The position numbers and the translations under genes were made by a program. A stretch of 64,000 bases of DNA from a virus. Shown here one piece after another: positions 10,255 to 63,574 of this stretch; position 1 is the stretch's first letter, and the number at the start of each line of letters is the position of its first letter. The notes below the pieces were generated by a model. The model did not search any database. It had not been told where the DNA came from and saw only the letters and a program-made list of their open reading frames with translations. The stretch is from positions 3,347 to 67,346 of the IMG/VR virus record IMGVR_UViG_3300043434_000871. One strand, given 5' to 3'.

Positions 10255-10323
10255 CGCAGGAAAGGTTGGATCCTCGGCTAGTCTCATAAGCTGGCCTTCC
10301 GAGTTCGATTCTCGGTCCTGCTA
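10255..10323 (+). tRNA. tRNA with CAT anticodon (Met or Ile2), short D-arm, no encoded CCA
   Basis: Acceptor GCAGGA/TCCTGC; anticodon loop CTCATAA; T-arm CCGAG-TTCGATT-CTCGG. Confidence 0.75.
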
Positions 10324-10325
10324 AT

Positions 10326-10455
10326 GGACACCGACAGGGCAGACAAGACCTGGTTAAAGCTCTGTCCTGTTGGTGCTCCGCCTACAAATGACGGGGGTCG
10401 AGCAGTGGAAAGATAAACCACGAACGCTCGTTTACCGGCGATCCCGGACACCGTC
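10326..10455 (+). ncRNA. Candidate structured RNA downstream of the tRNA
   Basis: 15-bp stem with two G-U pairs, then nested stems GACGG/CCGTC, CGAGC/GCTCG and GTGG/CCAC. Confidence 0.45.
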
Positions 10456-10466
10456 CCACCTTTACC

Positions 10467-10688
10467 ATGAAAGCCCTCCTTGAATTCGAACTGCCGGTAG
10501 ACTCAGAGGCTCACCATGACGCGCTTCACGGTTCAGAGTGGCGGATGGCTTTGGTCGAGATCAGCGAGTATCTCCGGGGAGAGGTGAAGCACGGCAATTA
10601 TACCGCCGAGGAGTTCGCGGTGTTCGATAAAGTCCGGGAGGTCATCTACAAGACCCTCGAAGACCGGGGTCTCAACCTCTACGTATGA
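10467..10688 (+). CDS. Hypothetical phage protein
   Basis: MKALLEFELP...YLRGEVKHG, a common small phage protein pattern. Confidence 0.7.
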   Translation: MKALLEFELPVDSEAHHDALHGSEWRMALVEISEYLRGEVKHGNYTAEEFAVFDKVREVIYKTLEDRGLNLYV

Positions 10689-10805
10689 GGGTCATGGATT
10701 CAGCCAATGTCGTGTTTCAGGCATTCTTGGGTTTTAGATCGCCCGATCGCGACACCATGTCGCGAGAATTGTCGCGATACCTGTTTGGGACGCGAATCTG
10801 GGAGT

Positions 10806-14549: not shown

Positions 14550-14570
14550 ACAAAGGTGATGGGGTTATTA

Positions 14571-34292: not shown

Positions 34293-34529
34293 ATGCCAGA
34301 TTATTATCCCGAAAATAACATCCCCTTACGCGAGGATTACACCGAGAGGTCGTTGCAGAAGATCAATGCCATCCTGCACGCGGCGAGTCCGGTATGGGAC
34401 GACATAAATCTGACCTACGACGGCAACGGCAACCTGACCCAAGCCGTCTTCAAGGCGGGGGGTTCGGTGATCCAGACGACCAACCTCACCTACACGAATA
34501 ATAACCTCACAAGAGTGCAACGTAGCTGA
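34293..34529 (+). CDS. Small virion protein with the shared N-terminal motif
   Basis: MPDYYPENNIP...ERSLQK; LTYDGNGNL. Confidence 0.65.
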   Translation: MPDYYPENNIPLREDYTERSLQKINAILHAASPVWDDINLTYDGNGNLTQAVFKAGGSVIQTTNLTYTNNNLTRVQRS

Positions 34530-51783: not shown

Positions 51784-53345
51784 ACGAGTTCGAACAGTTT
51801 ATCGCTAACGAATACGGGCTTAAAGCTGGAGACGATGTCAGCGGAATCATCGATGATGCTCGCGCCCGTTTTCGCGCAATGAAGAGTGCGCCAACAACCC
51901 AGCAGACGGAACCATTTCTTCAAAGGGAGATGGCCAAGATTCCGGAGACGCCAAATGCTCAATCCGTGCAGCAGTCACGGAGTCAGCCAGCCGATGATGG
52001 GTTGTTCGAAATGGGGTTTATCGGTCGACAAAACGTGAACCCTGTTTACGTGTTTGCTGATGAAGTGGCACAGCAAGAGGCCAAAGCGCCGGCTCAACCG
52101 CAACAGCAGCAAAAGCCCTCCCTCGACGTGAATGCCTTCTTAAAGGCGACTAATGCCCGTCAAATGGAGCTAGAAGCGGTCCGTCCACTGGCGACAAACA
52201 ACTACCGCCGCAAGGAAACGGATGAGGCGCTCAATAACGCCAATAATGAACTACTCCGTCGGTATGCTACAGACGCCGATCTTCTCGCTCAATATGGAGT
52301 CAATGATGTTAAGACATTTAACCAGGTGTCCGAAGAGCCTTTTGAAGTTCGGGCGAAGGCGTGGCAGATAGTTCAGCCTAAGTTGGACCGTGGCGAAGTG
52401 CCGGATTGGCTGGGTGCAATCGAGCAGGTCAAAAAATCGAATAGTCTGCCGAGTGCTACGGGAGCGTCCAACGAGGCTGGAATGCCGAAAGCGCCTGATG
52501 ATCTGAAAAGATATGAGACTAGGGAGATCGCGGCGGCTCGGGCTGCGGAAAGCCCGACTCCTGATAATTTAATGAAGGTTGAGGCTTTGGACCGTGAGAT
52601 CAATCAAACTGATGGTAATGAGAGGTATGTCAAACAGGTCGGGTTCATCGACAATAAGCTGAACAACCTCCGGGACATGATGGCGACCCCAAACAACTTA
52701 ATCGCTTCGGGATATACCAACCCTTTTACAGGACAGCCGATTCAAGATCTCGATGAAGCGAAGGAAGTTGAAAACCGTTTGGTAGCTTCTCGTGCTCGAA
52801 CTGTTGTCGAAATGAAAAATGCCGGACCTGAGTTCTGGCAAGGCTTACCTTCCCCCGCGACTTTCCCGTATAAAACAACAATCAAAGATGCGGCCGAAGA
52901 TCTCCGCAAGGCAGGCGTAACCAACCTCAAACCTAGAGAACACCTCGAAACTTTACGGCGCAAAGAGTGGGTGGACTACGAGAAAAGTCGCGGCCCAGGT
53001 TTCCTCTATGTTGCGCCGACAGCGGACGGAAACCTCAACTTAATTGAGAGCACGCCTGTCGTAAGTAAGTCCGACCCCAACGCGATTTCTCCAGATAATC
53101 CTCTAGCCGGAGCAGTGGCCGAGGAGGAAATGGCAGCGACTCGTAATAATGAAGCCGCTTTCCGTAGCCAATTAGATGCTGCACAACGCCGCGTTGCCAG
53201 ACTCGCTGATACAAGCAAGCCAATGCAATTTGAGGTTTCCCCGACGCAGTCTCGGAATTTTACGGCTAGGGAGCGTGCGCTTGAGATTGAGGGTTTGCAG
53301 AAACAAATCACGGCACTCCAAGAAAAACTGAGTAAACTCCAGTAA
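51780..53345 (+). CDS. Putative internal virion protein
   Basis: 521-aa helical ORF before the giant gene. Confidence 0.55.
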   Translation: MNEFEQFIANEYGLKAGDDVSGIIDDARARFRAMKSAPTTQQTEPFLQREMAKIPETPNAQSVQQSRSQPADDGLFEMGFIGRQNVNPVYVFADEVAQQEAKAPAQPQQQQKPSLDVNAFLKATNARQMELEAVRPLATNNYRRKETDEALNNANNELLRRYATDADLLAQYGVNDVKTFNQVSEEPFEVRAKAWQIVQPKLDRGEVPDWLGAIEQVKKSNSLPSATGASNEAGMPKAPDDLKRYETREIAAARAAESPTPDNLMKVEALDREINQTDGNERYVKQVGFIDNKLNNLRDMMATPNNLIASGYTNPFTGQPIQDLDEAKEVENRLVASRARTVVEMKNAGPEFWQGLPSPATFPYKTTIKDAAEDLRKAGVTNLKPREHLETLRRKEWVDYEKSRGPGFLYVAPTADGNLNLIESTPVVSKSDPNAISPDNPLAGAVAEEEMAATRNNEAAFRSQLDAAQRRVARLADTSKPMQFEVSPTQSRNFTARERALEIEGLQKQITALQEKLSKLQ

Positions 53346-56300
53346 TGGCAGCATCTATGAACTGGTGGGAAGACGAAGAACAGATTGCCGCATATTTACA
53401 GGAGCGCGAAGCTCCCGTAGAGACCGCGCAACAATCTGAAGCCGTCCGTCCCACGGATGTTGATCTAGGACTAAGCCCGGAAGCCCCCGAGCAAGCGTTA
53501 CAAGAGCCAGCCGAAACAGCGACTCCTTGGTGGCAAGACACGACTCAGTTAGCCGCTTATCAAGAGGATCTTCGGAGTATCGGTCGGGCGGCGACTTCCG
53601 CCGGGTCTGTGGACGCACGAGTTCAGAGGGGTTTGGTGGATGAATTTAGCGCCGGGCTTTCTCGCGGCATCGACCAGACCCAAGCCCTTGGATATGGGTT
53701 GCTCGGTCTCGTGGGTGAATCGCTCGGGGTGGACGCTGTTTCTGATTTTGGTATCGAGGGCTATGTCCGCAACATGGAGGAGGCGGCGAAGAATCAAGCC
53801 TCGGTGCAAGATCCTTTCGAGGAGATCGGCGGGGTGGGTGACGCAGGGCTTTACGCGGCGGGGATTCTCGGCGAGCAGTTGCCACAGCTTTTGCTTTCGG
53901 TCGCGGGCGGCGGCATCGGCGGTTACGCGGCGAAGACGGTGGCGAAGAAAGTCGTGGCCAATGAGATCGGCAAGCGGGTGGCCGCGGGCATGGCCAAGGA
54001 TGAAGCCGAGGAAGTCGTGGCCAAGCTCGTCGCCCAGAAGGCGCTTCGGGGATTTGATGTGCCTTTTGCCCGTGCTGGCGGTGGCGACCCGCGTATCGTC
54101 GGCGGCATCGGCCAAGAAGCCGTGCAGCAAGCGACCCGTGCCGGTGCTCTCGGTGGCGCGTATGTCGCCAACGTGGGGCAGATCGCGGGCGGCAGCTTTG
54201 GTGAGATCGAGCAGGAGACGGGACTTCGTGATCCGGTGAACGCACTCGGCTTTGCTTTGATCGGCGGTGCAGTGGAGACGGCGGGTGAAGCGGTCTTGGC
54301 GGCACCGATTGCGCGGAAGCTGATCGGCTCGGCGGCGCGTAGTGTGGAGGCTAAACCTCTCGGCTTTGCGCTCGGACCGAAGGCGAAGGTGGCGGGTCAA
54401 CTCGCCGCGGCTCCGGCGGCGGAAGGTGCGACGGAGTATGTGCAGACGGGCTTGGAGCAAAGTGCCGTGGCTTCGGCGGACCCGAACAGATCTTTTGAGG
54501 AAGTGGTGCTCACCCCTGAAGCGGCTCGTGAGCGGCAGATTGCGGCCGCAGCGGGAGCCGTGGCCGGCGGCGGCTTCGGAGCCGTGAGCCAGGCAGCGAG
54601 TTTCTTGATCCCCGAAACACGAAACGCGGTTCAGCGTAAGTTGGCTCAACGGCAAGCGGAGCAGGGGGCGACGGAGGAAGATCAATCTGCCGCTGGGATG
54701 CTGACGGGTGACTGGTCGCAGCCGGTGCAGGTGGATGATGTGACGATGCAGCGGAATTCCTCCGGTGTATGGGTCGCGGTGAATCCAGGGGAGAATCTTT
54801 TCCAAGGTGTCCCTCGGGTGCAGACGGAGGACGGCACGTCGCTGTTGGTGGTGAGCCCCGAGGCTGACGAGCAAGGGCGGGCAGCTTTCTTGGTGGCTCG
54901 GGCGGAGAAGGCGTTGAGTGATCTCGATGAGGGCGAGGTTGCTACAGAATTTCAATCACAAGAGGAGCCCGCGGCGGAGGCTGACGATGAACTCGGTGAA
55001 CCTGTTGAACTTGATGAGGAGACCGAAGCTACGAGGTTGCGTCAGAGCCCGATGGGCGCGACGGCGTTGCGCGAACAGTTGGCAGAGGAAGAGGAGGTTT
55101 CGGCGGCTTTGGCCGATCCGGTTGTCTCTAGTGTAGAACCTCCCGCGCCACAGCCGCTCAAGTCAGCAGCGGAATCAGCGCAAACAATCGCCGCAGAGTT
55201 GGAGCGTGAGGAGGAATTTCGTCGTAGTGATGAGGGAGCCCAAGCCTTGCGCGAGCAGTTGGCGGAGGAAGAGGAGGTGTCGGCGGCTTTGGCTGACCCG
55301 GCGACGAGTGAGGAAAGAGGCGAAGCTACCGTCTTAAAACCAGCTTCAGAATCCGCAGCGGCCATCCAAGCTGCCGAGAATGCCGAGCGCACGACCGCTA
55401 ACAATCCTGTCGAAGCATCCTATCTCCGTCGCCGTTTGGCTTACGAAGAGTCACAGAGCGAAAGGCAGAAAGGTAATGACGAAGCTCTGGCCCGTCCTCT
55501 AACTCAGTCAGCGGCGTTTGTTGATGGATTGCAGACGGGCCAGCGGGTTGGGCTGTTGCTTGGCGGTATGCCTGAGGCTCTGGCTGGGACGACGGGTGTC
55601 TTTGTCGGACGCCGCAAGAACGGAAATGCAGTTTTCGAGGCGAGTGATTTGTCCCCAGTGAGCGGAGACCCGATCGGGCAAAAGACTCGCGTCGAGTTAA
55701 AGCCTTCGCAGTTTAACCGCGTGATCTTGGCTCCACCCCCGCAGCCGACACGCACTCCGCTGGAGCAAGCCTTCGACGACGCGCTCGGACCGAACCCGAC
55801 CAAGCAGCAAGCCGAACGTGTTCTTGGACCGCCCTACACGGGAACCCGCGGGGCGCAGGAGTCGACTTTCCAAGATGGTCTAGGCTCGGAGCCGTTTCCG
55901 GTGTTGATTAGCTGGTTCAATAAGAAGGGTGAGAAGGGGACAATCATCCCCTCGATCAAAGGTAAGTTCACCAATTCTGCGCTGACCACGGTGCGTCAGA
56001 TGAACCAAGGTCTTGAGATTGTGGTGCCGGATGACCAACTTGGGAAAATAAGCAAAGACATCCAAGTTGAGGCAGTGAGCGACAAGAAAGGTGGCCGAAA
56101 GAACATCGTGACGGGCGTCAACCTATGGGGCCGCACCTATCGCCGCAGCCTTCGCTCGCCAAAAGATTTCAGCGTCGATATCCCGCTGACCAAACGCGGT
56201 GCCGGAGCTCGCAAACAAGGGCTGCTGCTTTTCGACAACATCTACAAGAACTCGCCGGAGCGTATCGCCCGCAGCGAAGCCGCAGTCCGCGGAGCCAAGG

Positions 56301-59300
56301 AACGCCAGACTCCTCCGGAGCAAATGCTCCGCGAGTGGGAACTGGTGCAGGCTGGGCTTAATCCGGTCGAATACGCTTTCTACGAGGACGCTCTCGGCCG
56401 GGCGACTGATTACATCAATCGATCGAACCTTCCAGAAAACGTAAAGGACGAAGCGCGGTTTGAGGCGCAGAACAATGTGGTCAAAGCCTTTGCCAACCGG
56501 AAGAAGCGGCGCGGCAAACAACCCGCGGAAGGCACAGCCGCATTGGCCAAGACTTACTTGGAAGAGTTGGCCAAGCTGCGTGATGGCCGCTTGGAGAAAA
56601 CACGCGAACGCTCGACACGGCTGATCGGCAACGTCGAGCGCAACCGTGGGCGCATGTCGGATCTTGAAATCGAGCGCGGCTCCATCGATCCGCAGCGTGC
56701 GGCCGAAATTGAAGAGCGCGTCATCGATGAGGCGATGAAGGGCAACGAGGTCGATCTCGATCGCGCCGTCGAAGCGACTCTCAAGCGTCTGGCCACTGAA
56801 CAGCCGAACCGCAAAGCCCGAGAAGTTTTCGATACACGCAAGGCTCTTCGTTCGATCGCCGAAAGCTACAAGAACATCGGCAAGTTCAACCCGATCTACA
56901 CGGCGATGAATGCGGTGCGGACGGCCGACCGTTCGATCCGCCGCCGCGAAATGAACGAGCAGACCGAGCTCATCACCGACCGCGAGGCTCGGGAGTTGGC
57001 GGGTCGTCAGCGGGCTGAAGAGCCGGAGACGATCCAGCAAAACGTGCAGGGTGAGATCGACCGCGCTCTCCAAGCTGAGACAGTCCAAGCCGTCGACCGC
57101 GCCGTGCTTCCGGAACAAGCCGAGCCTGAAACAACCGACGAGGCACCGGAGATCAGTCCGGATGATCCGATGCTCGATCAAGTCTCAGACGCGAGAGAAC
57201 GCTTTTTCAATTTGACCGAAGAAGATCAAGTTCTTGTATTGAGTAATCGACGGCTGAATTTAGATGAACGCGGACGGCCTATTCGCGGTCAAAAGAGTAA
57301 CCTAACCCAAGCGCAAAAGCGTCGGGCCAAACAGATCGAACAATACCTTCAAAGGAAACAGACCTATGCAAACCTCTACCCAGAAAGCCCCGTCGCGCCC
57401 CAACAGCCAAGACGAGGAGATCAGTCCGCCGCTCAAATCCCTGTTAGCCGGTTTAGCTCTGGAGAAGTTCTCGCCGGAGTTGCTGAATCGGGTGCCCGAG
57501 GCAGACCGCGAACGGATACGCAAGGGCGACCCGAAAGTGTGGGCCGACCTGATCGCGCAGGAACCGGAACTGTTCAGGGAGCCGATAATGTCCGAGATGG
57601 AGGACCTGGCGTTCGAGCATCTCTTGCGCCGCAAACCGTCCGCAGACTCAGCCGATCAGCCAAGTCCCGCTTCGTCCAGTCCTTCGGTCGCCTGACCGAT
57701 GCCGAGGCTTCGGCGTTGACCGAGGCCGAAATCGATCGCGCCTACGAGGCGATCGTCACCCGCAAAAACGCCGCCACGGTGCGGGCCAACCGTATCGTCT
57801 CCGGCGAAACTCCGCGCTCGCTGGCCGATCTCGGCACGATGTCCGGCTCGGAGCTCTTGGCCGGAGCCGTCGATGCGATGCGGACTTACGAAGCCGACCG
57901 CGCTCGGGTGCAAATCGTCCGCGACAATGTCGGCGCTCTCCTCCGTGCCCGTGCCTTTGCCGATGTCTCGACCTTCCTTGGTTCGGTAGCCGGAAGCAAT
58001 GCACCGCAGGACGTGAAGCTGCGTGCCCGTGAGTTCTCCAAGCTCCTCGGACGCGGCGTCGATCTCAACGCGGTCGGCGTGCAAATCGGACGCTTCGGTG
58101 ACAACACATCTTGGGCCGGACTCTTTACCCGCGACAACAGCAACACTTACAACATCGCCCTCAACTTGGATGCACAGCACGACCGCGAAAGCGCGATCAA
58201 CACGATGCTCCATGAGCTGTCGCACGTCGTTACTTCCAAGAAGATCCGCGGTGAGGTGCGGCTCAACAATGTCGAGCAAAACGCGATCAACCGCCTCGAA
58301 GCCTTGCGCCGTGAAGCACTGGTCGCCGCAGCACGCGATGTCGGTCTGGATGTTCCGACCGACCTGACCGATGCCGACTACGAGCGTCTGGCCAATGACC
58401 TCGATCAGCGTGCCTTGCCGCAGAACGATCCGGACGGCACCAACCGGGTCTATGCCAGCTTGGGCAGTCTCGAAGAATTCACGGTCGAAGTTTCCAGCAG
58501 CCCCGAACTGGCCGGACTGATGGCGCGGCTTGGTTTCGGTCAGGCGAGGGGACGGGTCACTTTGCTCAACGCCATCCGCGATGCGTGGAATGCCTTGGTC
58601 GAATTGGTCTCCGGCGTCAAAGCCGATCCGAACTCACCTCTGGCCCGTGCCTTCAAGGACTCGTGGATCCTCAACTACTCCAACGCGGGCGGTGAGGTGA
58701 ATCTCGGCGACTACACCATGCCGGAGATCCGCCGCTCGGCGATCAACCGCGAACTGGCCCGCCGCCAAGGGATCGAGGACGAGATCACCCGCGAAGTCGA
58801 AGCCCGCAACTTGGCCGGCACGACGGCAGAACGTGAAGCGATCTTGGCCGAGTTGTTTGATCCGAGCGTGACGGCCAGCGCAGCCAGGGTGCAGCGTGCA
58901 GCCAATCGCCTGTCCCAAGCCGACTTCGTCCAGTGGGCGCGGAAGAATGGATACAACTTCACCGATCCCGTTGCGGTCTACAATAATAACCGCACAACGG
59001 ATCAAGCTACAGGCGACACGGTTCAGGGTGCAGAGAGCCGTGCCGTAGCTCAACCGAGTGGCCGAGATCCTGAGAGAAGCATAGGGAAGCAACTCGCAGA
59101 GCTACGAGCAGCTAATCGGAGAAAAGCTGGCCTCGGGCTTCTCCAACTAGCTGAAGCCCGTGGAGAAAATCTTTTTCAACTTCCGAGGAACCTTTCAAAT
59201 AGTGAAGACCTATTGACTGTTTTAGATTCGACGGGTGCTCAATTTGCCTTGGTAAATATGAGACCTCCGGAGCAGGTGGAGTCTGGAGAATTACGTGAGA

Positions 59301-62300
59301 TCATCCTCGGCTCACGCAATTCTGTGATTGTAGGACGACAAGCACTCTACCAAAAGAATGATGGTGGAGTTGCTTCTGGAACTGTTGTCCGCAAGACAAA
59401 CCGTTCGATCTTCATCCAAGACGGCGACAATGTAGTCAACGTCCCCGCAAAAAACGTGGTTGGGTTGAACGGAACCATAATGATTAAAGAGGAGCCTGAT
59501 CCTTATGGCGCTGTGTGGCCGGGGAAAGTATGGGCTGTCGATTCCTCTGACGGTAACCGTGACCCGATCATTGACTCCACGCGCATGTATCAAGGGTTGT
59601 ATCAGTGGGCTGCAAATACTGGTCAGAAGATAGTCCCAGACAGTGCGGGGACTTCTCCGACCGGAAGCTATCGCCGCAACGCGCAGCAGATCTCAAGTGC
59701 GCTGCGGTTGAAGTCAGCCGAACATTTCATCCCTACAGACGAACAGTTGGACTTAATGTTCCCCGAAGTAAATTCGGACTCCGAAAAAGTAACAAAGTGG
59801 TTGAAATCGGATTTGGAAGAGAAAGTCGGGGCTCTGGCACTGGCGGAGGTCGGCTTTGTTGAACAACTTCTACCAGATATTGTCACACTTAAATATGACC
59901 CAAATACCAATAGCTTCTTGGGAGAAGGCGAATCCATTAGTAGAGACGAAGCAAGAAAACGACTTGATAGTCTCCTTGCGGACCCAGAAGCCCAAGACCC
60001 AACTGAACCTATCCGAATCGGAGAGGCAACTCTTGTGCGGTATCTTGCGTCGAGATCCGCGCTTCAAGGCAGCTTCGGAGCAGACGCTCCGGTCTTGCGC
60101 TCTGAATCTGCTTCTTTAGACAAGATCGCCTACAGCCGTGCGCGTGGGTGGGTGACGCCGCAGCAAGACGCCGACTACCTCGCAGCCGTCGAGCGCGGCG
60201 ACATGGAGACGGCGCAGAGGATGGTGGATGAGGCGGCGAGGGCTGCGGGATACGCGACACCAGCAGTCCACGGGAGTTCTTCGGACAAGGAGTTCACAGT
60301 ATTCGACACCGACACAAGCCCATACGGACGAGTTCAAGGAAGCTATTTCACGCAGAACGCTCGCGGCACTTGGTCTGAGTGGCTGAAAAATCGACGCCCG
60401 ATGCGTGTATTTCTTCGCTTCAACAACCCTGCTACCCGCGAAACATTGGACGAAATGGGTTACCGCCTCACAGGGGTAGCTGCGAAACAGTGGTTGTCAG
60501 ACCGCGGTTACGACGGAGTCGTTGATGATTCTATGGACGAGGTTGTGGCCTTTTACCCCAACCAAATCAAATCCGCCGACCCCGTAACCTACGACGATAG
60601 GGGCAATGTCATCCCGTTGAGTCAGAGGTTCAACGAAACCAGCCCCGACATCCGCTTCAGCCGTGCGCGTGGGAGGGTCTGGCGTCCGATTACGAAGACG
60701 ACGCCGACGGGTGGCAAGATCACTCAGGGCGGCATGTTCTCGGTCGATGAGCTTCTCGATGTGCGAGCAGGAGATGCGTATCGCAAGAGCCGTATGGCGA
60801 TCAAGGTCGATGTTTCGGTAATCCAAGAGCTTTCCCGGCAGTTGGAGCGGCAGATGAAAAGTCTCTACAAAGGGCAGACGCCGCCGCTGGAGACGCTCAA
60901 CACGGCGCTGGGTAACCTTGAGAACCCGTTGACGACGCAGCAACTCGATGAGATCGAGGCGCTCGTAGCGGCGGGGCGTCCGAAACAAGCGGGGGAGAAG
61001 AAGGATCAATTCTTGCGCGAGAATCGCAAGCGGTTCAAGGAGGTCACACAACCTGCCGCCTTGGCGCAGTTGCCGGAGGAGATTGCCACGACGATCCGCG
61101 AGATGTCGGCGCATATCGAATCTCTTTCCCGCCGGTTGCCGAACGAAGGTCTGGTGAACGGGGACTTGGCGATCTCGGTGGATGAGGCGCTCGGCACCTA
61201 CCTGAACCGTAGCTATGCGATCTTCGATGATCCGCAGTGGGCTGACCGCGTTCGCAAGAACGCGAAGGTGATGGACGCGGCGCGGAAGTTTATCCGCAAC
61301 GGGATGGTAAAGGATAAGGCGAATGAGTTGATCGTGGCGGCGCAGACGGAAGGTCGCACCGTCTCTACTCAGGAGGCGTTGGCGCGGGCCAATGACTCGG
61401 TGACGGAGGATCAAGTGGAAGGGATGTTGGAGAGTTATCTGGCGATCGGTGATGAAGCGCCTTCGGTGGAGTTGCTCTCGGGTCGCATTCCAGGGCAAAA
61501 GAATCTCTCGATTTTCTACAAACGCGGCAATATCGCGCCGGAGATCCAGGATCTCTGGGGGCGTTATGAAGACCCGGCGGTGAACTACGCGAAGACGGTG
61601 ATGAAGCTGTCAAGTCTGGTGGCCAATGACAGATTTTTGAAGGAACTCCGTGATATGGGGCTGCAAGAGGGGTGGCTGTGGAGTCGGGAGAATAACCCTG
61701 ATGATCTGCGGCATCCTCCGGGATATATCCGTATTTCAACGGATAATAACCCCACACTCGCGCCGATTGCGGGTATGTATGCTCATCCGATGCTGGCTGA
61801 AGGTCTCTTCAAGATGTTCCCAGTCGGATCGACGGAGGAGCATTATTGGTGGTTGCGCTCGGCGATGAAGTTGACGGGGGTGTCGATGGCGATGAAGACG
61901 GTCGGCTCGGTGGCTTCGCAAGTGCGTAACTATCTGGGTAACTACCTGAATCTGATCGCGGGTGGCAACCTCGGCCTTGGCGACATCGCCAGTGGGGACT
62001 TCGCCAAACGCTTCCGCAACTCGACCGACTTGGTGCTGGCCAATACCTTCAACAAATACCGCAACGCGACCCGCGCCGAGTGGCGGGCGAAGATCGACGA
62101 TTATATCCGCCGCGGTGTCGTCGGTGAGTCGATCACGACGGGGCTTCTTGAAGATCTGCTCACGGCCAGCCGCCGTGCGGGTAGCCCCGATTGGGGTGAT
62201 TATGTGTGGGGTAAAGTTTCCGAGCCCGTAAAGAGGGTGGCGGACTTTGCCACGCGCACTTACTCAGCGGGTGACGACTGGTTCAAGGTGATGATCTACG

Positions 62301-63574
62301 AGGCGGAGCAGGACAAATACCGCAAGGCGTATCCGGATTGGTCGGACGATCAGGTGAAGCAGAAAGCTGCCGAGATCGCCCGTGACATTCACTGGACTTA
62401 CTCGCTGGCTCCGGCGGTGGTCGATGATTTGAAGAAGTTTCCGTTTGTCGCGCCGTTTGTGACGTTCACAACGGAGGTCATCCGCACGACCTACAATCTG
62501 CAAAAACTCGCCCGCCAAGAAATCATGGAAGGTCGGGCGACGGGGAACAAGGAGTTGGAGAATATCGGATGGAAACGGGTGCGCGGTATGACCACGGCGG
62601 CATTTTTACCGGCGGCTGTGGGATCAGCTTCGATGGCTATTGCCGGTATTTCCGGGGAAGATGAGGAAGATCTCCGTCGCTTCCTGCCCGACTGGCAGAA
62701 GAATAGCCAGCTTCTTGTTTTCCGCAAAGCCGACGGGCAAGTGAGCTTCGTGGATGTGAGCTTCCTCGATCCTTACGAGTATTTCAAAAAGCCGTTGGTG
62801 GCGTTTGCCCGGTCGCTCCGTAATGCGGAAGGCGCGGACGAGATCCTCCTTGGCGGCACGATGGCAATGGTGCGCCAAGCGGTTGACCCGTTCACCAGTG
62901 AGCAAATCTTCTCGGGCGCAATCCTCGATGTGATGCGTAACCGCGATGCGGCCGGCCGTCAGGTTTACAATCCGCAAGACACCGGAGCCAACATCGGCAC
63001 GGCAGTCGCCCGCAAGATCTTCATCGAGCCTTTCACTCCTGGAACTTTCACCAGCCTCGACCGCATCGGTAAAGCCGCCTTCGGTATCCAGAGCGAGACC
63101 GGCCGTGCCTACGGGCTTTTCAACGAATTGGCCAGCGTCATGGCCGGCCAGAGGGTCTCGGAGATGGATGCTCAACAAGCCTTGCAATTCAAAGGCTCGG
63201 GATTCATGCGGGAGATCCGGGATGCCTCGGCGCTGTTCAACAAAGAGTTCGTCTCCCGCGGCACGCGCTCGGCTTCGGATGTCGTGAGCGGATACGAACG
63301 CTCAAACGCAGCGCGTCGTGCTTTGATCGAGGGCATCCGCAACGATTATCTCGCGGCGATTCGCCTCGGTGTGCCAGTGGCGCGTGCCAAAGCTATCTTG
63401 CGGGATGCAGGTCTCGGTCGCGACACGTTGCGAATGGTGACAACGGGGATATACAAACCCTTCGAGGCCAGCGAGCAGAGCCTCGACTTGGTGCGCTCCC
63501 GCGGGAATGCCGACCGGATCAGTGCTTACAACCAAGCCAAGCGAAACGCGCCGCCGCGTGAAGTCCTGCCGTAA
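53345..63574 (+). CDS. Giant polyvalent/ejection protein (3409 aa) with zincin and ART-like domains
   Basis: HELSH...EEF metallopeptidase motif; AVHGS...GSYFT...GYDGV...EVVAF..NQIKS ART-like module; Gly/Ala-rich N-terminus. Confidence 0.8.
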   Translation: MAASMNWWEDEEQIAAYLQEREAPVETAQQSEAVRPTDVDLGLSPEAPEQALQEPAETATPWWQDTTQLAAYQEDLRSIGRAATSAGSVDARVQRGLVDEFSAGLSRGIDQTQALGYGLLGLVGESLGVDAVSDFGIEGYVRNMEEAAKNQASVQDPFEEIGGVGDAGLYAAGILGEQLPQLLLSVAGGGIGGYAAKTVAKKVVANEIGKRVAAGMAKDEAEEVVAKLVAQKALRGFDVPFARAGGGDPRIVGGIGQEAVQQATRAGALGGAYVANVGQIAGGSFGEIEQETGLRDPVNALGFALIGGAVETAGEAVLAAPIARKLIGSAARSVEAKPLGFALGPKAKVAGQLAAAPAAEGATEYVQTGLEQSAVASADPNRSFEEVVLTPEAARERQIAAAAGAVAGGGFGAVSQAASFLIPETRNAVQRKLAQRQAEQGATEEDQSAAGMLTGDWSQPVQVDDVTMQRNSSGVWVAVNPGENLFQGVPRVQTEDGTSLLVVSPEADEQGRAAFLVARAEKALSDLDEGEVATEFQSQEEPAAEADDELGEPVELDEETEATRLRQSPMGATALREQLAEEEEVSAALADPVVSSVEPPAPQPLKSAAESAQTIAAELEREEEFRRSDEGAQALREQLAEEEEVSAALADPATSEERGEATVLKPASESAAAIQAAENAERTTANNPVEASYLRRRLAYEESQSERQKGNDEALARPLTQSAAFVDGLQTGQRVGLLLGGMPEALAGTTGVFVGRRKNGNAVFEASDLSPVSGDPIGQKTRVELKPSQFNRVILAPPPQPTRTPLEQAFDDALGPNPTKQQAERVLGPPYTGTRGAQESTFQDGLGSEPFPVLISWFNKKGEKGTIIPSIKGKFTNSALTTVRQMNQGLEIVVPDDQLGKISKDIQVEAVSDKKGGRKNIVTGVNLWGRTYRRSLRSPKDFSVDIPLTKRGAGARKQGLLLFDNIYKNSPERIARSEAAVRGAKERQTPPEQMLREWELVQAGLNPVEYAFYEDALGRATDYINRSNLPENVKDEARFEAQNNVVKAFANRKKRRGKQPAEGTAALAKTYLEELAKLRDGRLEKTRERSTRLIGNVERNRGRMSDLEIERGSIDPQRAAEIEERVIDEAMKGNEVDLDRAVEATLKRLATEQPNRKAREVFDTRKALRSIAESYKNIGKFNPIYTAMNAVRTADRSIRRREMNEQTELITDREARELAGRQRAEEPETIQQNVQGEIDRALQAETVQAVDRAVLPEQAEPETTDEAPEISPDDPMLDQVSDARERFFNLTEEDQVLVLSNRRLNLDERGRPIRGQKSNLTQAQKRRAKQIEQYLQRKQTYANLYPESPVAPQQPRRGDQSAAQIPVSRFSSGEVLAGVAESGARGRPRTDTQGRPESVGRPDRAGTGTVQGADNVRDGGPGVRASLAPQTVRRLSRSAKSRFVQSFGRLTDAEASALTEAEIDRAYEAIVTRKNAATVRANRIVSGETPRSLADLGTMSGSELLAGAVDAMRTYEADRARVQIVRDNVGALLRARAFADVSTFLGSVAGSNAPQDVKLRAREFSKLLGRGVDLNAVGVQIGRFGDNTSWAGLFTRDNSNTYNIALNLDAQHDRESAINTMLHELSHVVTSKKIRGEVRLNNVEQNAINRLEALRREALVAAARDVGLDVPTDLTDADYERLANDLDQRALPQNDPDGTNRVYASLGSLEEFTVEVSSSPELAGLMARLGFGQARGRVTLLNAIRDAWNALVELVSGVKADPNSPLARAFKDSWILNYSNAGGEVNLGDYTMPEIRRSAINRELARRQGIEDEITREVEARNLAGTTAEREAILAELFDPSVTASAARVQRAANRLSQADFVQWARKNGYNFTDPVAVYNNNRTTDQATGDTVQGAESRAVAQPSGRDPERSIGKQLAELRAANRRKAGLGLLQLAEARGENLFQLPRNLSNSEDLLTVLDSTGAQFALVNMRPPEQVESGELREIILGSRNSVIVGRQALYQKNDGGVASGTVVRKTNRSIFIQDGDNVVNVPAKNVVGLNGTIMIKEEPDPYGAVWPGKVWAVDSSDGNRDPIIDSTRMYQGLYQWAANTGQKIVPDSAGTSPTGSYRRNAQQISSALRLKSAEHFIPTDEQLDLMFPEVNSDSEKVTKWLKSDLEEKVGALALAEVGFVEQLLPDIVTLKYDPNTNSFLGEGESISRDEARKRLDSLLADPEAQDPTEPIRIGEATLVRYLASRSALQGSFGADAPVLRSESASLDKIAYSRARGWVTPQQDADYLAAVERGDMETAQRMVDEAARAAGYATPAVHGSSSDKEFTVFDTDTSPYGRVQGSYFTQNARGTWSEWLKNRRPMRVFLRFNNPATRETLDEMGYRLTGVAAKQWLSDRGYDGVVDDSMDEVVAFYPNQIKSADPVTYDDRGNVIPLSQRFNETSPDIRFSRARGRVWRPITKTTPTGGKITQGGMFSVDELLDVRAGDAYRKSRMAIKVDVSVIQELSRQLERQMKSLYKGQTPPLETLNTALGNLENPLTTQQLDEIEALVAAGRPKQAGEKKDQFLRENRKRFKEVTQPAALAQLPEEIATTIREMSAHIESLSRRLPNEGLVNGDLAISVDEALGTYLNRSYAIFDDPQWADRVRKNAKVMDAARKFIRNGMVKDKANELIVAAQTEGRTVSTQEALARANDSVTEDQVEGMLESYLAIGDEAPSVELLSGRIPGQKNLSIFYKRGNIAPEIQDLWGRYEDPAVNYAKTVMKLSSLVANDRFLKELRDMGLQEGWLWSRENNPDDLRHPPGYIRISTDNNPTLAPIAGMYAHPMLAEGLFKMFPVGSTEEHYWWLRSAMKLTGVSMAMKTVGSVASQVRNYLGNYLNLIAGGNLGLGDIASGDFAKRFRNSTDLVLANTFNKYRNATRAEWRAKIDDYIRRGVVGESITTGLLEDLLTASRRAGSPDWGDYVWGKVSEPVKRVADFATRTYSAGDDWFKVMIYEAEQDKYRKAYPDWSDDQVKQKAAEIARDIHWTYSLAPAVVDDLKKFPFVAPFVTFTTEVIRTTYNLQKLARQEIMEGRATGNKELENIGWKRVRGMTTAAFLPAAVGSASMAIAGISGEDEEDLRRFLPDWQKNSQLLVFRKADGQVSFVDVSFLDPYEYFKKPLVAFARSLRNAEGADEILLGGTMAMVRQAVDPFTSEQIFSGAILDVMRNRDAAGRQVYNPQDTGANIGTAVARKIFIEPFTPGTFTSLDRIGKAAFGIQSETGRAYGLFNELASVMAGQRVSEMDAQQALQFKGSGFMREIRDASALFNKEFVSRGTRSASDVVSGYERSNAARRALIEGIRNDYLAAIRLGVPVARAKAILRDAGLGRDTLRMVTTGIYKPFEASEQSLDLVRSRGNADRISAYNQAKRNAPPREVLP
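57366..57695 (+). CDS. Candidate overprinted gene in the +1 frame of the giant gene
   Basis: AAAGGAAA RBS 7 nt before ATG; GC-rich third positions; host frame is R/G/P-rich here. Confidence 0.55.
   Translation: MQTSTQKAPSRPNSQDEEISPPLKSLLAGLALEKFSPELLNRVPEADRERIRKGDPKVWADLIAQEPELFREPIMSEMEDLAFEHLLRRKPSADSADQPSPASSSPSVA

Follow-up and report, generated by a model that had tools for sequence, protein, structure and literature searches.

Can a stretch of phage DNA that already encodes part of a giant virion-associated protein hold a second gene in another reading frame, and which of the two products does its sequence then serve? The question is raised by positions 57366-57695 of IMG/VR record IMGVR_UViG_3300043434_000871, an uncultured freshwater phage, where a first-pass annotation made from the letters alone had pointed to a 109-amino-acid (aa) open reading frame (ORF) in the +1 frame of a gene for a 3409-aa protein. 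The ORF is present as described. The window, by which we mean the whole stretch of DNA analysed, comprises 64 kb of this 67,346-base virus record, which is judged 97% complete. We conclude that 57366-57695 is probably (at a rough probability of 0.85) a genuine overlapping protein-coding gene, in the +1 frame and on the same strand, inside the giant polyvalent gene; conservation, frame-specific selection, small homologues (one of them free-standing) and a confident predicted fold together argue for a real second gene. The features on which the analysis turns are the following, the frame of the giant gene being called the host frame.

53345..63574, + strand: host gene P0001, encoding the 3409-aa virion-associated polyvalent protein (ORF, Pfam and PHROG evidence)
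57303..57305, + strand: TAA, the nearest upstream stop in the +1 frame, which is open over 57306-57695
57351..57358, + strand: Shine-Dalgarno (SD)-like AAAGGAAA, 7 nucleotides (nt) before the nested ATG
57366..57695, + strand: nested +1-frame gene P0002, 109 codons plus TGA with an ATG start, its frame one base 3' of the giant frame
57392..57616, + strand: linker of predicted disorder and rich in R, G, P and S, host-frame residues 1350-1424 (AlphaFold2 and composition)
57426..57629, + strand: residues 21-88 of the nested protein, its core, with selection acting chiefly on the +1 frame (diversity, mutation classes and AlphaFold2)
57644..57695, + strand: nested C-terminal tail ...SSSPSVA*, which shares its bases with the host motif RFVQSFGR; here the host frame dominates

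The +1 frame was followed through relatives of the phage. A profile search of IMG/VR yielded 16 loci with a related giant gene, three of which are identical, leaving 15 distinct sequences including the window that we grouped into about eight lineages. A tblastn search with the 109-aa protein gave a match within the giant gene at all 16 loci, and the matching frame, always the host +1 frame, is open for 92-139 codons at every one of them. The first start codon is ATG at 14 loci and GTG at the other two (L004 and L015), where an ATG follows a few codons further on; L004 additionally has a TTG preceded by a strong GAAGGGGG. The N-termini are similar between loci (MKTST, MQTST, MTKST and MSKST), and each first start is preceded, at a distance of 1-20 codons, by a +1-frame stop. 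A check of the relatives for interrupting +1-frame stops or a lost start thus found neither. The nested copy is the only copy in its genome in six of six records, each estimated to be 95-100% complete. Contigs assembled from four DNA runs cover the stretch with relatives 98% and about 91% identical to it and without indels. A low-depth contig from one run (X10; depth 4.5, shorter side 39 letters) joins 57329 to 57512, skipping 182 bases, and could come from a divergent relative of which only parts align, or from a variant with a deletion disrupting both frames.

The pattern of sequence variation shows which frame is under selection. Mean diversity across the giant gene at host codon positions 1, 2 and 3 is 0.38, 0.32 and 0.56, and among 2769 windows of 30 codons position 3 drops clearly below position 1 only in a cluster at 57428-57697 (-0.166 at its lowest). 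The 15 windows with the least position-3 diversity fall within 57491-57640; in a second patch, at 59852-59983, position 3 dips marginally below position 1 (-0.011). Read in the +1 frame, the diversity of the core follows the normal coding pattern of position 3 > 1 > 2 (about 0.44, 0.37 and 0.29). Single differences between sequences, classed by their effect in each frame in 13 pairs with divergence up to 25%, reveal the same preference: 79 of 158 differences in the core are nonsynonymous in the host frame and synonymous in the +1 frame (2.16 times the random expectation) and 30 belong to the reverse class (0.62 times), while three flanking regions are reversed, with 0.4-0.5 and 2.8-3.1 times the expectation for those two classes. 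Furthermore, Nei-Gojobori proportions of nonsynonymous (pN) and synonymous (pS) differences in eight close pairs gave pN > pS for the host frame of the core in six pairs and pN < pS for the +1 frame in all eight, the flanks behaving the other way round; the pN/pS ratio ranged from 0.06 to 0.66 in the +1 frame and from 0.7 to 6 in the host frame. For the pair L001-L002, for example, pN/pS in the core was 0.110/0.049 in the host frame and 0.052/0.205 in the +1 frame, and for the window and L004 the corresponding values were 0.329/0.151 and 0.230/0.431. Compared over identical columns, the +1 products of 21 of 28 lineage pairs share more of their amino acids than the host-frame products do. The comparison of selection between frames across homologues, proposed in the first-pass annotation, therefore came out in favour of the small gene: it is mainly the small protein that purifying selection maintains in the core, and the host frame is kept open and otherwise drifts. 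In the last ~50 nt of the overlap the roles of the two frames are reversed. Host third-position diversity is highest again from the window at 57644 onward, the host motif RFVQSFGR is conserved in homologues, and the nested tails SSSPSVA, SSSPSQG and SSSPLPA recur; with the host frame dominant from about 57644, the SSSPS tail of the nested protein is the shadow of RFVQSF.

Codon usage was compared between the frames as well. Scored by a log-likelihood of codon usage trained on 15 other genes, the host frame drops below zero over about 57360-57600, and the +1 frame rises above it. The mostly G/C third positions that had been seen in the +1 frame are borne out by a G+C content at third codon positions (GC3) of 0.74 over the overlap, against 0.47 in the host frame, and the difference extends to all 15 distinct sequences (0.68-0.80 against 0.34-0.47); in 13 of the 15, the codons of the +1 frame also correlate better than those of the host frame with the remainder of the gene. 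The earlier description of the main frame as R/G/P-rich and atypical in its codons is likewise upheld by both composition and codon log-likelihood: the 110 host residues 1341-1450 include R16, G14, A12, S12, P10 and V10 and have an isoelectric point (pI) of 11.5. Glu and Asp codons of the +1 frame (GAN; GAR for Glu) are read one base earlier as NGA, giving Arg or Gly, so that the basic linker is largely a by-product of the acidic protein encoded in the other frame.

Structure predictions divide the two products in the same stretch of DNA. For the nested protein, a product of ~12.1 kDa with a pI of 4.9, no Cys and no hydrophobic N-terminus, AlphaFold2 with 20 sequences predicted six helices at a mean predicted local distance difference test (pLDDT) score of 78.9 (90 or more for 56 residues) and with block means of 82-94 for residues 21-90. 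For residues 1251-1650 of the giant protein (13-sequence alignment), block means fall to 28-34 over residues 1350-1424, and most blocks of the flanks score 80-95, some 56-66. The disordered host stretch at 57392-57616 and the helical core at 57426-57629 are the same DNA, which in these models has two readings, one a compact, acidic six-helix protein and the other an Arg/Gly-rich disordered linker between folded parts.

The small protein has homologues elsewhere. A phmmer search of 1.84 billion representative proteins returned 22 matches at E <= 1e-3, nine of those at E <= 1e-10. All but one are 57-153 aa long and share the motif PEL..VP.EL..R..GDP.VWADL...PELFR...MEDLAFE.LL; most start with Met, and none of these 21 sits in a larger protein. 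The remaining match, P0037, is a 493-aa protein with five identical repeats and was not accepted as a family member; it is excluded from the family alignment (A2), as are the N-terminally truncated P0020 and P0031. A word-indexed profile search added ten further members. Most entries of the family come from contigs of 0.5-6 kb, although one, P0041, is encoded on a contig of 18.3 kb, and these short sources are probably the reason why gene callers reported the family at all. On one contig of 1056 bp (L018) the homologue (580-927) stands by itself, outside any larger gene: stops interrupt the host-like frame, and blastx found no frame similar to any giant protein within the 1056 bp. The ATG of the next ORF on that contig (924-1055) overlaps the stop of the homologue (ATGA) and the ORF contains a CxxC motif; neither it nor two small upstream ORFs matched a PHROG.

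Further searches for loci of the family were made in two ways. Queries of viral contigs with the single small proteins P0030 and P0032 gave no match, and a match obtained with P0041 in a 341-aa ORF of L029 was weak and unrelated and was dismissed. A degenerate DNA pattern for WADL....PELFR found seven loci on contigs already known and three new contigs, which were rejected as family loci, two of them encoding the same unrelated 176-aa protein and one being a chance match. The protein in question, identical in L022 (oriented 10257-10805) and L027 (7782-8330), is a coiled-coil, scaffold-like protein of ~176 aa ending ...WADLKKLAPELFR...; it was picked up through the match to the search pattern only, without evidence of homology to the nested protein.

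How the small protein would be started is suggested by the bases upstream of its ATG. The + strand of the window contains a single copy of AAAGGAAA, at 57351, and the - strand six, of which five stand 5-9 nt before the ATG of small ORFs; the statement that the nested gene shares the ribosome-binding site (RBS) of early genes is thus confirmed. Small ORFs with this RBS belong to the - strand part of the window (1-27000), and in the + strand part (27500-64000) most structural genes lack an SD-like sequence; the nested gene is the sole + strand gene with an early-type RBS. The duplex energy with a generic anti-SD sequence at the nested ATG is -5.8 kcal/mol, a value equalled or bettered by 25% of the other ATGs in the giant gene. 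By the same measure the signal is strong in six of the 15 distinct sequences and moderate in four, including the window. From these sequences, the small protein would probably be made by internal initiation at AAAGGAAA-N7-ATG on the late mRNA of the giant gene.

Several points weigh against a second gene here. The SD-like signal is absent or weak in five of the 15 distinct sequences (L006, L007, L010, L015 and L016), which would also suit a frameshift. The codon alignment underlying the diversity windows was built on the host frame, and the pairs behind the mutation classes (13) and the pN/pS values (8) are small in number and related to one another by descent. The free-standing state was seen in a single homologue, that of the 1056-bp contig. 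The sequencing runs list no RNA run with the nested stretch. No library searched names a function for the nested protein, so that what is said of its function below is conjecture: in Pfam no family matched P0002 (best among 20 members, E 0.053), the best PHROG match had E 0.0022 and was found in two of 20 members, a profile search of PDB with the nested family reached E 0.13 at best, Foldseek gave no match at E <= 0.001 in PDB and BFVD, and ESM Atlas returned no usable match.

Other explanations were weighed against these data. The length of the ORF is in itself unremarkable, since the giant gene has four stop-free +1 runs of at least 109 codons, together covering 17% of the gene, and long ORFs on the opposite strand too; a chance 'shadow' ORF in a GC-rich gene, its conservation borrowed from the host protein, might be suspected for this reason. 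Such an ORF would leave the host protein as the conserved one, whereas the junk-like segment is the host-frame one, with the pN and pS relations in the core turned against it, and host synonymous sites are most conserved here and nowhere else in 10 kb; the free-standing homologue and the confident AlphaFold2 fold speak against chance as well, and we regard it as very improbable. Reduced synonymous variation by itself leaves the type of element unspecified, and a non-coding element (an RNA structure, or a packaging or replication site) or an antisense gene could also constrain the bases. RNAalifold on 12 sequences found a consensus of only -2.14 kcal/mol with 10 pairs and almost no covariation, Rfam gave no notable match, a promoter scan no promoter-like site and a terminator scan nothing relevant, and the variation follows the coding order of the +1 frame. 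Antisense frames were checked since antisense ORFs share third positions with the +1 frame, as does one of 110 aa at 57302-57634. An antisense gene was rejected: across the 16 loci the codon-for-codon antisense frame always contains 1-8 stops and the second frame 1-4, and the third is stop-free in L004 only. The chance that a constraint of either kind accounts for the locus is accordingly very slight.

The remaining alternatives attach the helical sequence to the giant protein itself. A programmed +1 frameshift near 57310-57420, read through to the stop at 57695, would yield the N-terminal 1340 residues of the giant protein with the helical domain as a cap. The domain shares strand and mRNA with the giant gene, and an SD-like sequence within a coding region can stimulate a +1 frameshift, as in prfB, which makes the one found here a potential stimulator; the TAA at 57303-57305 bounds the region for any such shift. 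This reading is nevertheless improbable, because a start is kept in all 16 loci through codons and places that differ between lineages, the +1-frame stop directly adjoins the first ATG in six loci, and the N-termini look genuine while the would-be slip stretch is variable and without a common slippery motif. Furthermore, the free-standing homologue of L018 has its own start, and no representative protein has the helical domain fused in frame. Codon statistics switch frame for ~250 nt and then back, as two compensating indels would have it, and the helical peptide might therefore belong to the giant protein, with the linker the product of a private or ancient double frameshift or of an assembly error. 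Yet 16 of 17 giant-protein homologues preserve the linker at the protein level, at identities from 95% down to 31% (the other, P0016, starts beyond the segment), the +1 peptide is in frame in none of the 17, the +1 frame is bounded by stops on both sides in all loci, and the indel-free contigs mentioned above are independent and come from other runs. This explanation is very improbable as well. An independent overlapping gene thus remains the preferred reading of 57366-57695.

Which of the two frames came first can be judged from the same observations. Genome-like codon usage, structural order, the direction of selection and the free-standing relative suggest that the frame of the small gene is the older or dominant one and that the giant-protein linker is the overprinted part. 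The codon-usage criterion of PMC8227390 likewise points to the small gene as the older frame. On this order of events the small-gene frame would have existed first and the linker of the giant protein would have been laid over it later. A giant gene still split at this point was sought with residues 900-1340, and none appeared among 8000 scored candidates, which is no proof of absence; engulfment of the small gene stays hypothetical for that reason.

The gene that encloses the ORF lies on the strand of the structural genes. Replication genes (primase, DNA polymerase, helicase-exonuclease and an integrase-like gene) lie on the - strand, and the + strand carries the structural genes, of which the giant gene is the last large one, at the end of the structural module. 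Its product contains the Pfam domains LPD37 (residues 2079-2233, E 2.9e-12) and ART-PolyVal (residues 2309-2412, E 1e-8) and matches PHROG 22602 'virion structural protein' (E 8.9e-31). The 17 homologues of the giant protein measure 2066-3786 aa and are 34-92% identical over residues 1100-1800; GenBank phages gave neither a DNA nor a tblastn match, and representative bacterial and archaeal genomes contained no relative of the giant or of the nested protein. The nested ORF had been placed just upstream of an HExxH peptidase domain, for which one feature is relevant.

58211..58225, + strand: HELSH (HExxH) motif of the giant protein, a candidate metallopeptidase site ~520 nt downstream of the nested ORF

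The motif is there, at that distance, and its residues H1623, E1624 and H1627 are invariant in 12 homologues, but the assignment to a peptidase stands only on a sub-threshold match to Peptidase_M78 (IrrE-like; E 0.045, with a score of 14 bits where the cut-off is 22), and a sequence search of PDB with the region found no relative. Further downstream, the part of the giant gene at 59150-60050 has a low GC content (0.47-0.53) and lies within a segment, about residues 1900-2440, that is unconserved among homologues; it also encloses the marginal second patch of lowered third-position diversity, at 59852-59983, and domain swapping is one possible cause. In the window as a whole the 8-mer TAATAACC has 12 copies on the + strand and 14 on the - strand (for example at 34499, 44689 and 30979 on the + strand and at 14570, 19999 and 4292 on the - strand), against ~0.5 per strand estimated from base composition. 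Many of its copies stand 8-30 nt upstream of start codons and are oriented with the gene, and it may be a promoter or leader motif of the phage.

Iyer et al. 2017 (PMC5512222) describe polyvalent proteins as packaged and delivered together with the DNA, with embedded peptidases that release their domains. The host gene resembles the genes described there in its signature domains, LPD37 and ART-PolyVal, and in its place at the end of the structural module, and by this analogy the giant protein is probably packaged and delivered with the DNA. What the nested protein would do can be suggested in outline. Probably made from the same mRNA as the giant protein, it can be guessed to be a co-expressed cytoplasmic helper of that protein, acting in its folding, its packaging or its restraint before packaging; we offer this role tentatively. 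About equally likely is an action on the host in which the giant protein has no part; the RBS of early type and the free-standing homologue, with its unrelated surroundings, fit that role. The first-pass annotation had conjectured an inhibitor, chaperone or immunity partner of a domain in the polyvalent protein, with the nearby HExxH motif as the prompt; no immunity family of Pfam or PHROGs matched. In a more speculative and rather doubtful scenario, the giant gene arose when two virion-protein genes fused across a free-standing gene of the helical protein that lay between them, whose -1 frame became the disordered Arg/Gly-rich linker, the swallowed gene remaining functional and still dictating the sequence. 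Through the genetic code the product, at pI 4.9, and the linker, at pI 11.5, are complementary in charge, acidic against basic, so that docking on the linker is conceivable, and within this scenario the small protein may serve there as a chaperone or clamp that keeps the giant protein inactive or competent for packaging until ejection.

Comparable arrangements are known from other viruses. In phage lambda, Rz1 is wholly embedded in Rz, in the +1 frame. The pair reported here is similar in being a same-strand pair of a tailed phage, with a small gene inside a larger one in the +1 frame, presumed late expression and a probable inner start of its own. It is unlike Rz1, an outer-membrane lipoprotein that binds Rz, in that P0002 has no Cys, hence no lipobox, and no hydrophobic signal, and unlike Rz in that the enclosing gene is a 10-kb virion polyvalent gene rather than a lysis gene for a type II inner-membrane protein. 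Rz and Rz1 are the two spanin subunits (PMC5295617). A second parallel is the spacer of the hepatitis B virus (HBV) polymerase, which overlaps preS/S: from codon usage, Pavesi proposed an earlier state with two genes and a short one between them, the two having merged into the polymerase later (PMC8227390). In HBV, too, a long multidomain protein crosses the gene of a structured protein by means of a tolerant spacer in the other frame, and the same logic applies here, the +1 frame having genome-like codon usage and a predicted fold and the host frame encoding a disordered linker. HBV differs in being an animal virus whose 3-kb genome is extremely compressed; this phage has a genome of 67 kb with little need for compression, and engulfment is only inferred.

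The microvirus phiX174 has out-of-frame genes within larger ones (B in A, E in D, and K) that were found by sequence and confirmed genetically. Its inner genes are taken to have arisen de novo in a tiny genome, whereas the inner gene here looks older or dominant and has a free-standing relative. These overlapping genes are also cited in PMC8227390. In a word search of PMC5512222, its supplements excluded, overlapping genes were not mentioned, and 'embedded' and 'nested' occurred in other senses; a literature search, again with supplements outside its range, turned up no nested gene in the gene of a polyvalent or giant virion protein. Out-of-frame genes within phage genes have thus long been known, from Rz/Rz1 and the microviruses; what is new here is the protein family, and what is unusual is the polarity of the overlap.

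Taken together, the locus would represent an out-of-frame nested gene of a tailed phage with unusually clean comparative support, and a phage parallel to the polymerase-spacer/S case of HBV. An embedded gene is usually assumed to be the newcomer; here it is the inner gene that has genome-like codons, a predicted fold and the stronger selection, which turns that view around. For the giant protein, conserved residues of the linker are shadows of the other frame and are not to be taken as functional motifs. Gene callers forbid nested genes, which leaves the family invisible on full-length phage contigs, and the disordered linkers of giant virion proteins suggest themselves as places to look for more. 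In the biology of these abundant freshwater phages, the nested gene would add a new family of small, acidic, helical proteins, found in about eight lineages and made alongside a protein that is probably injected.

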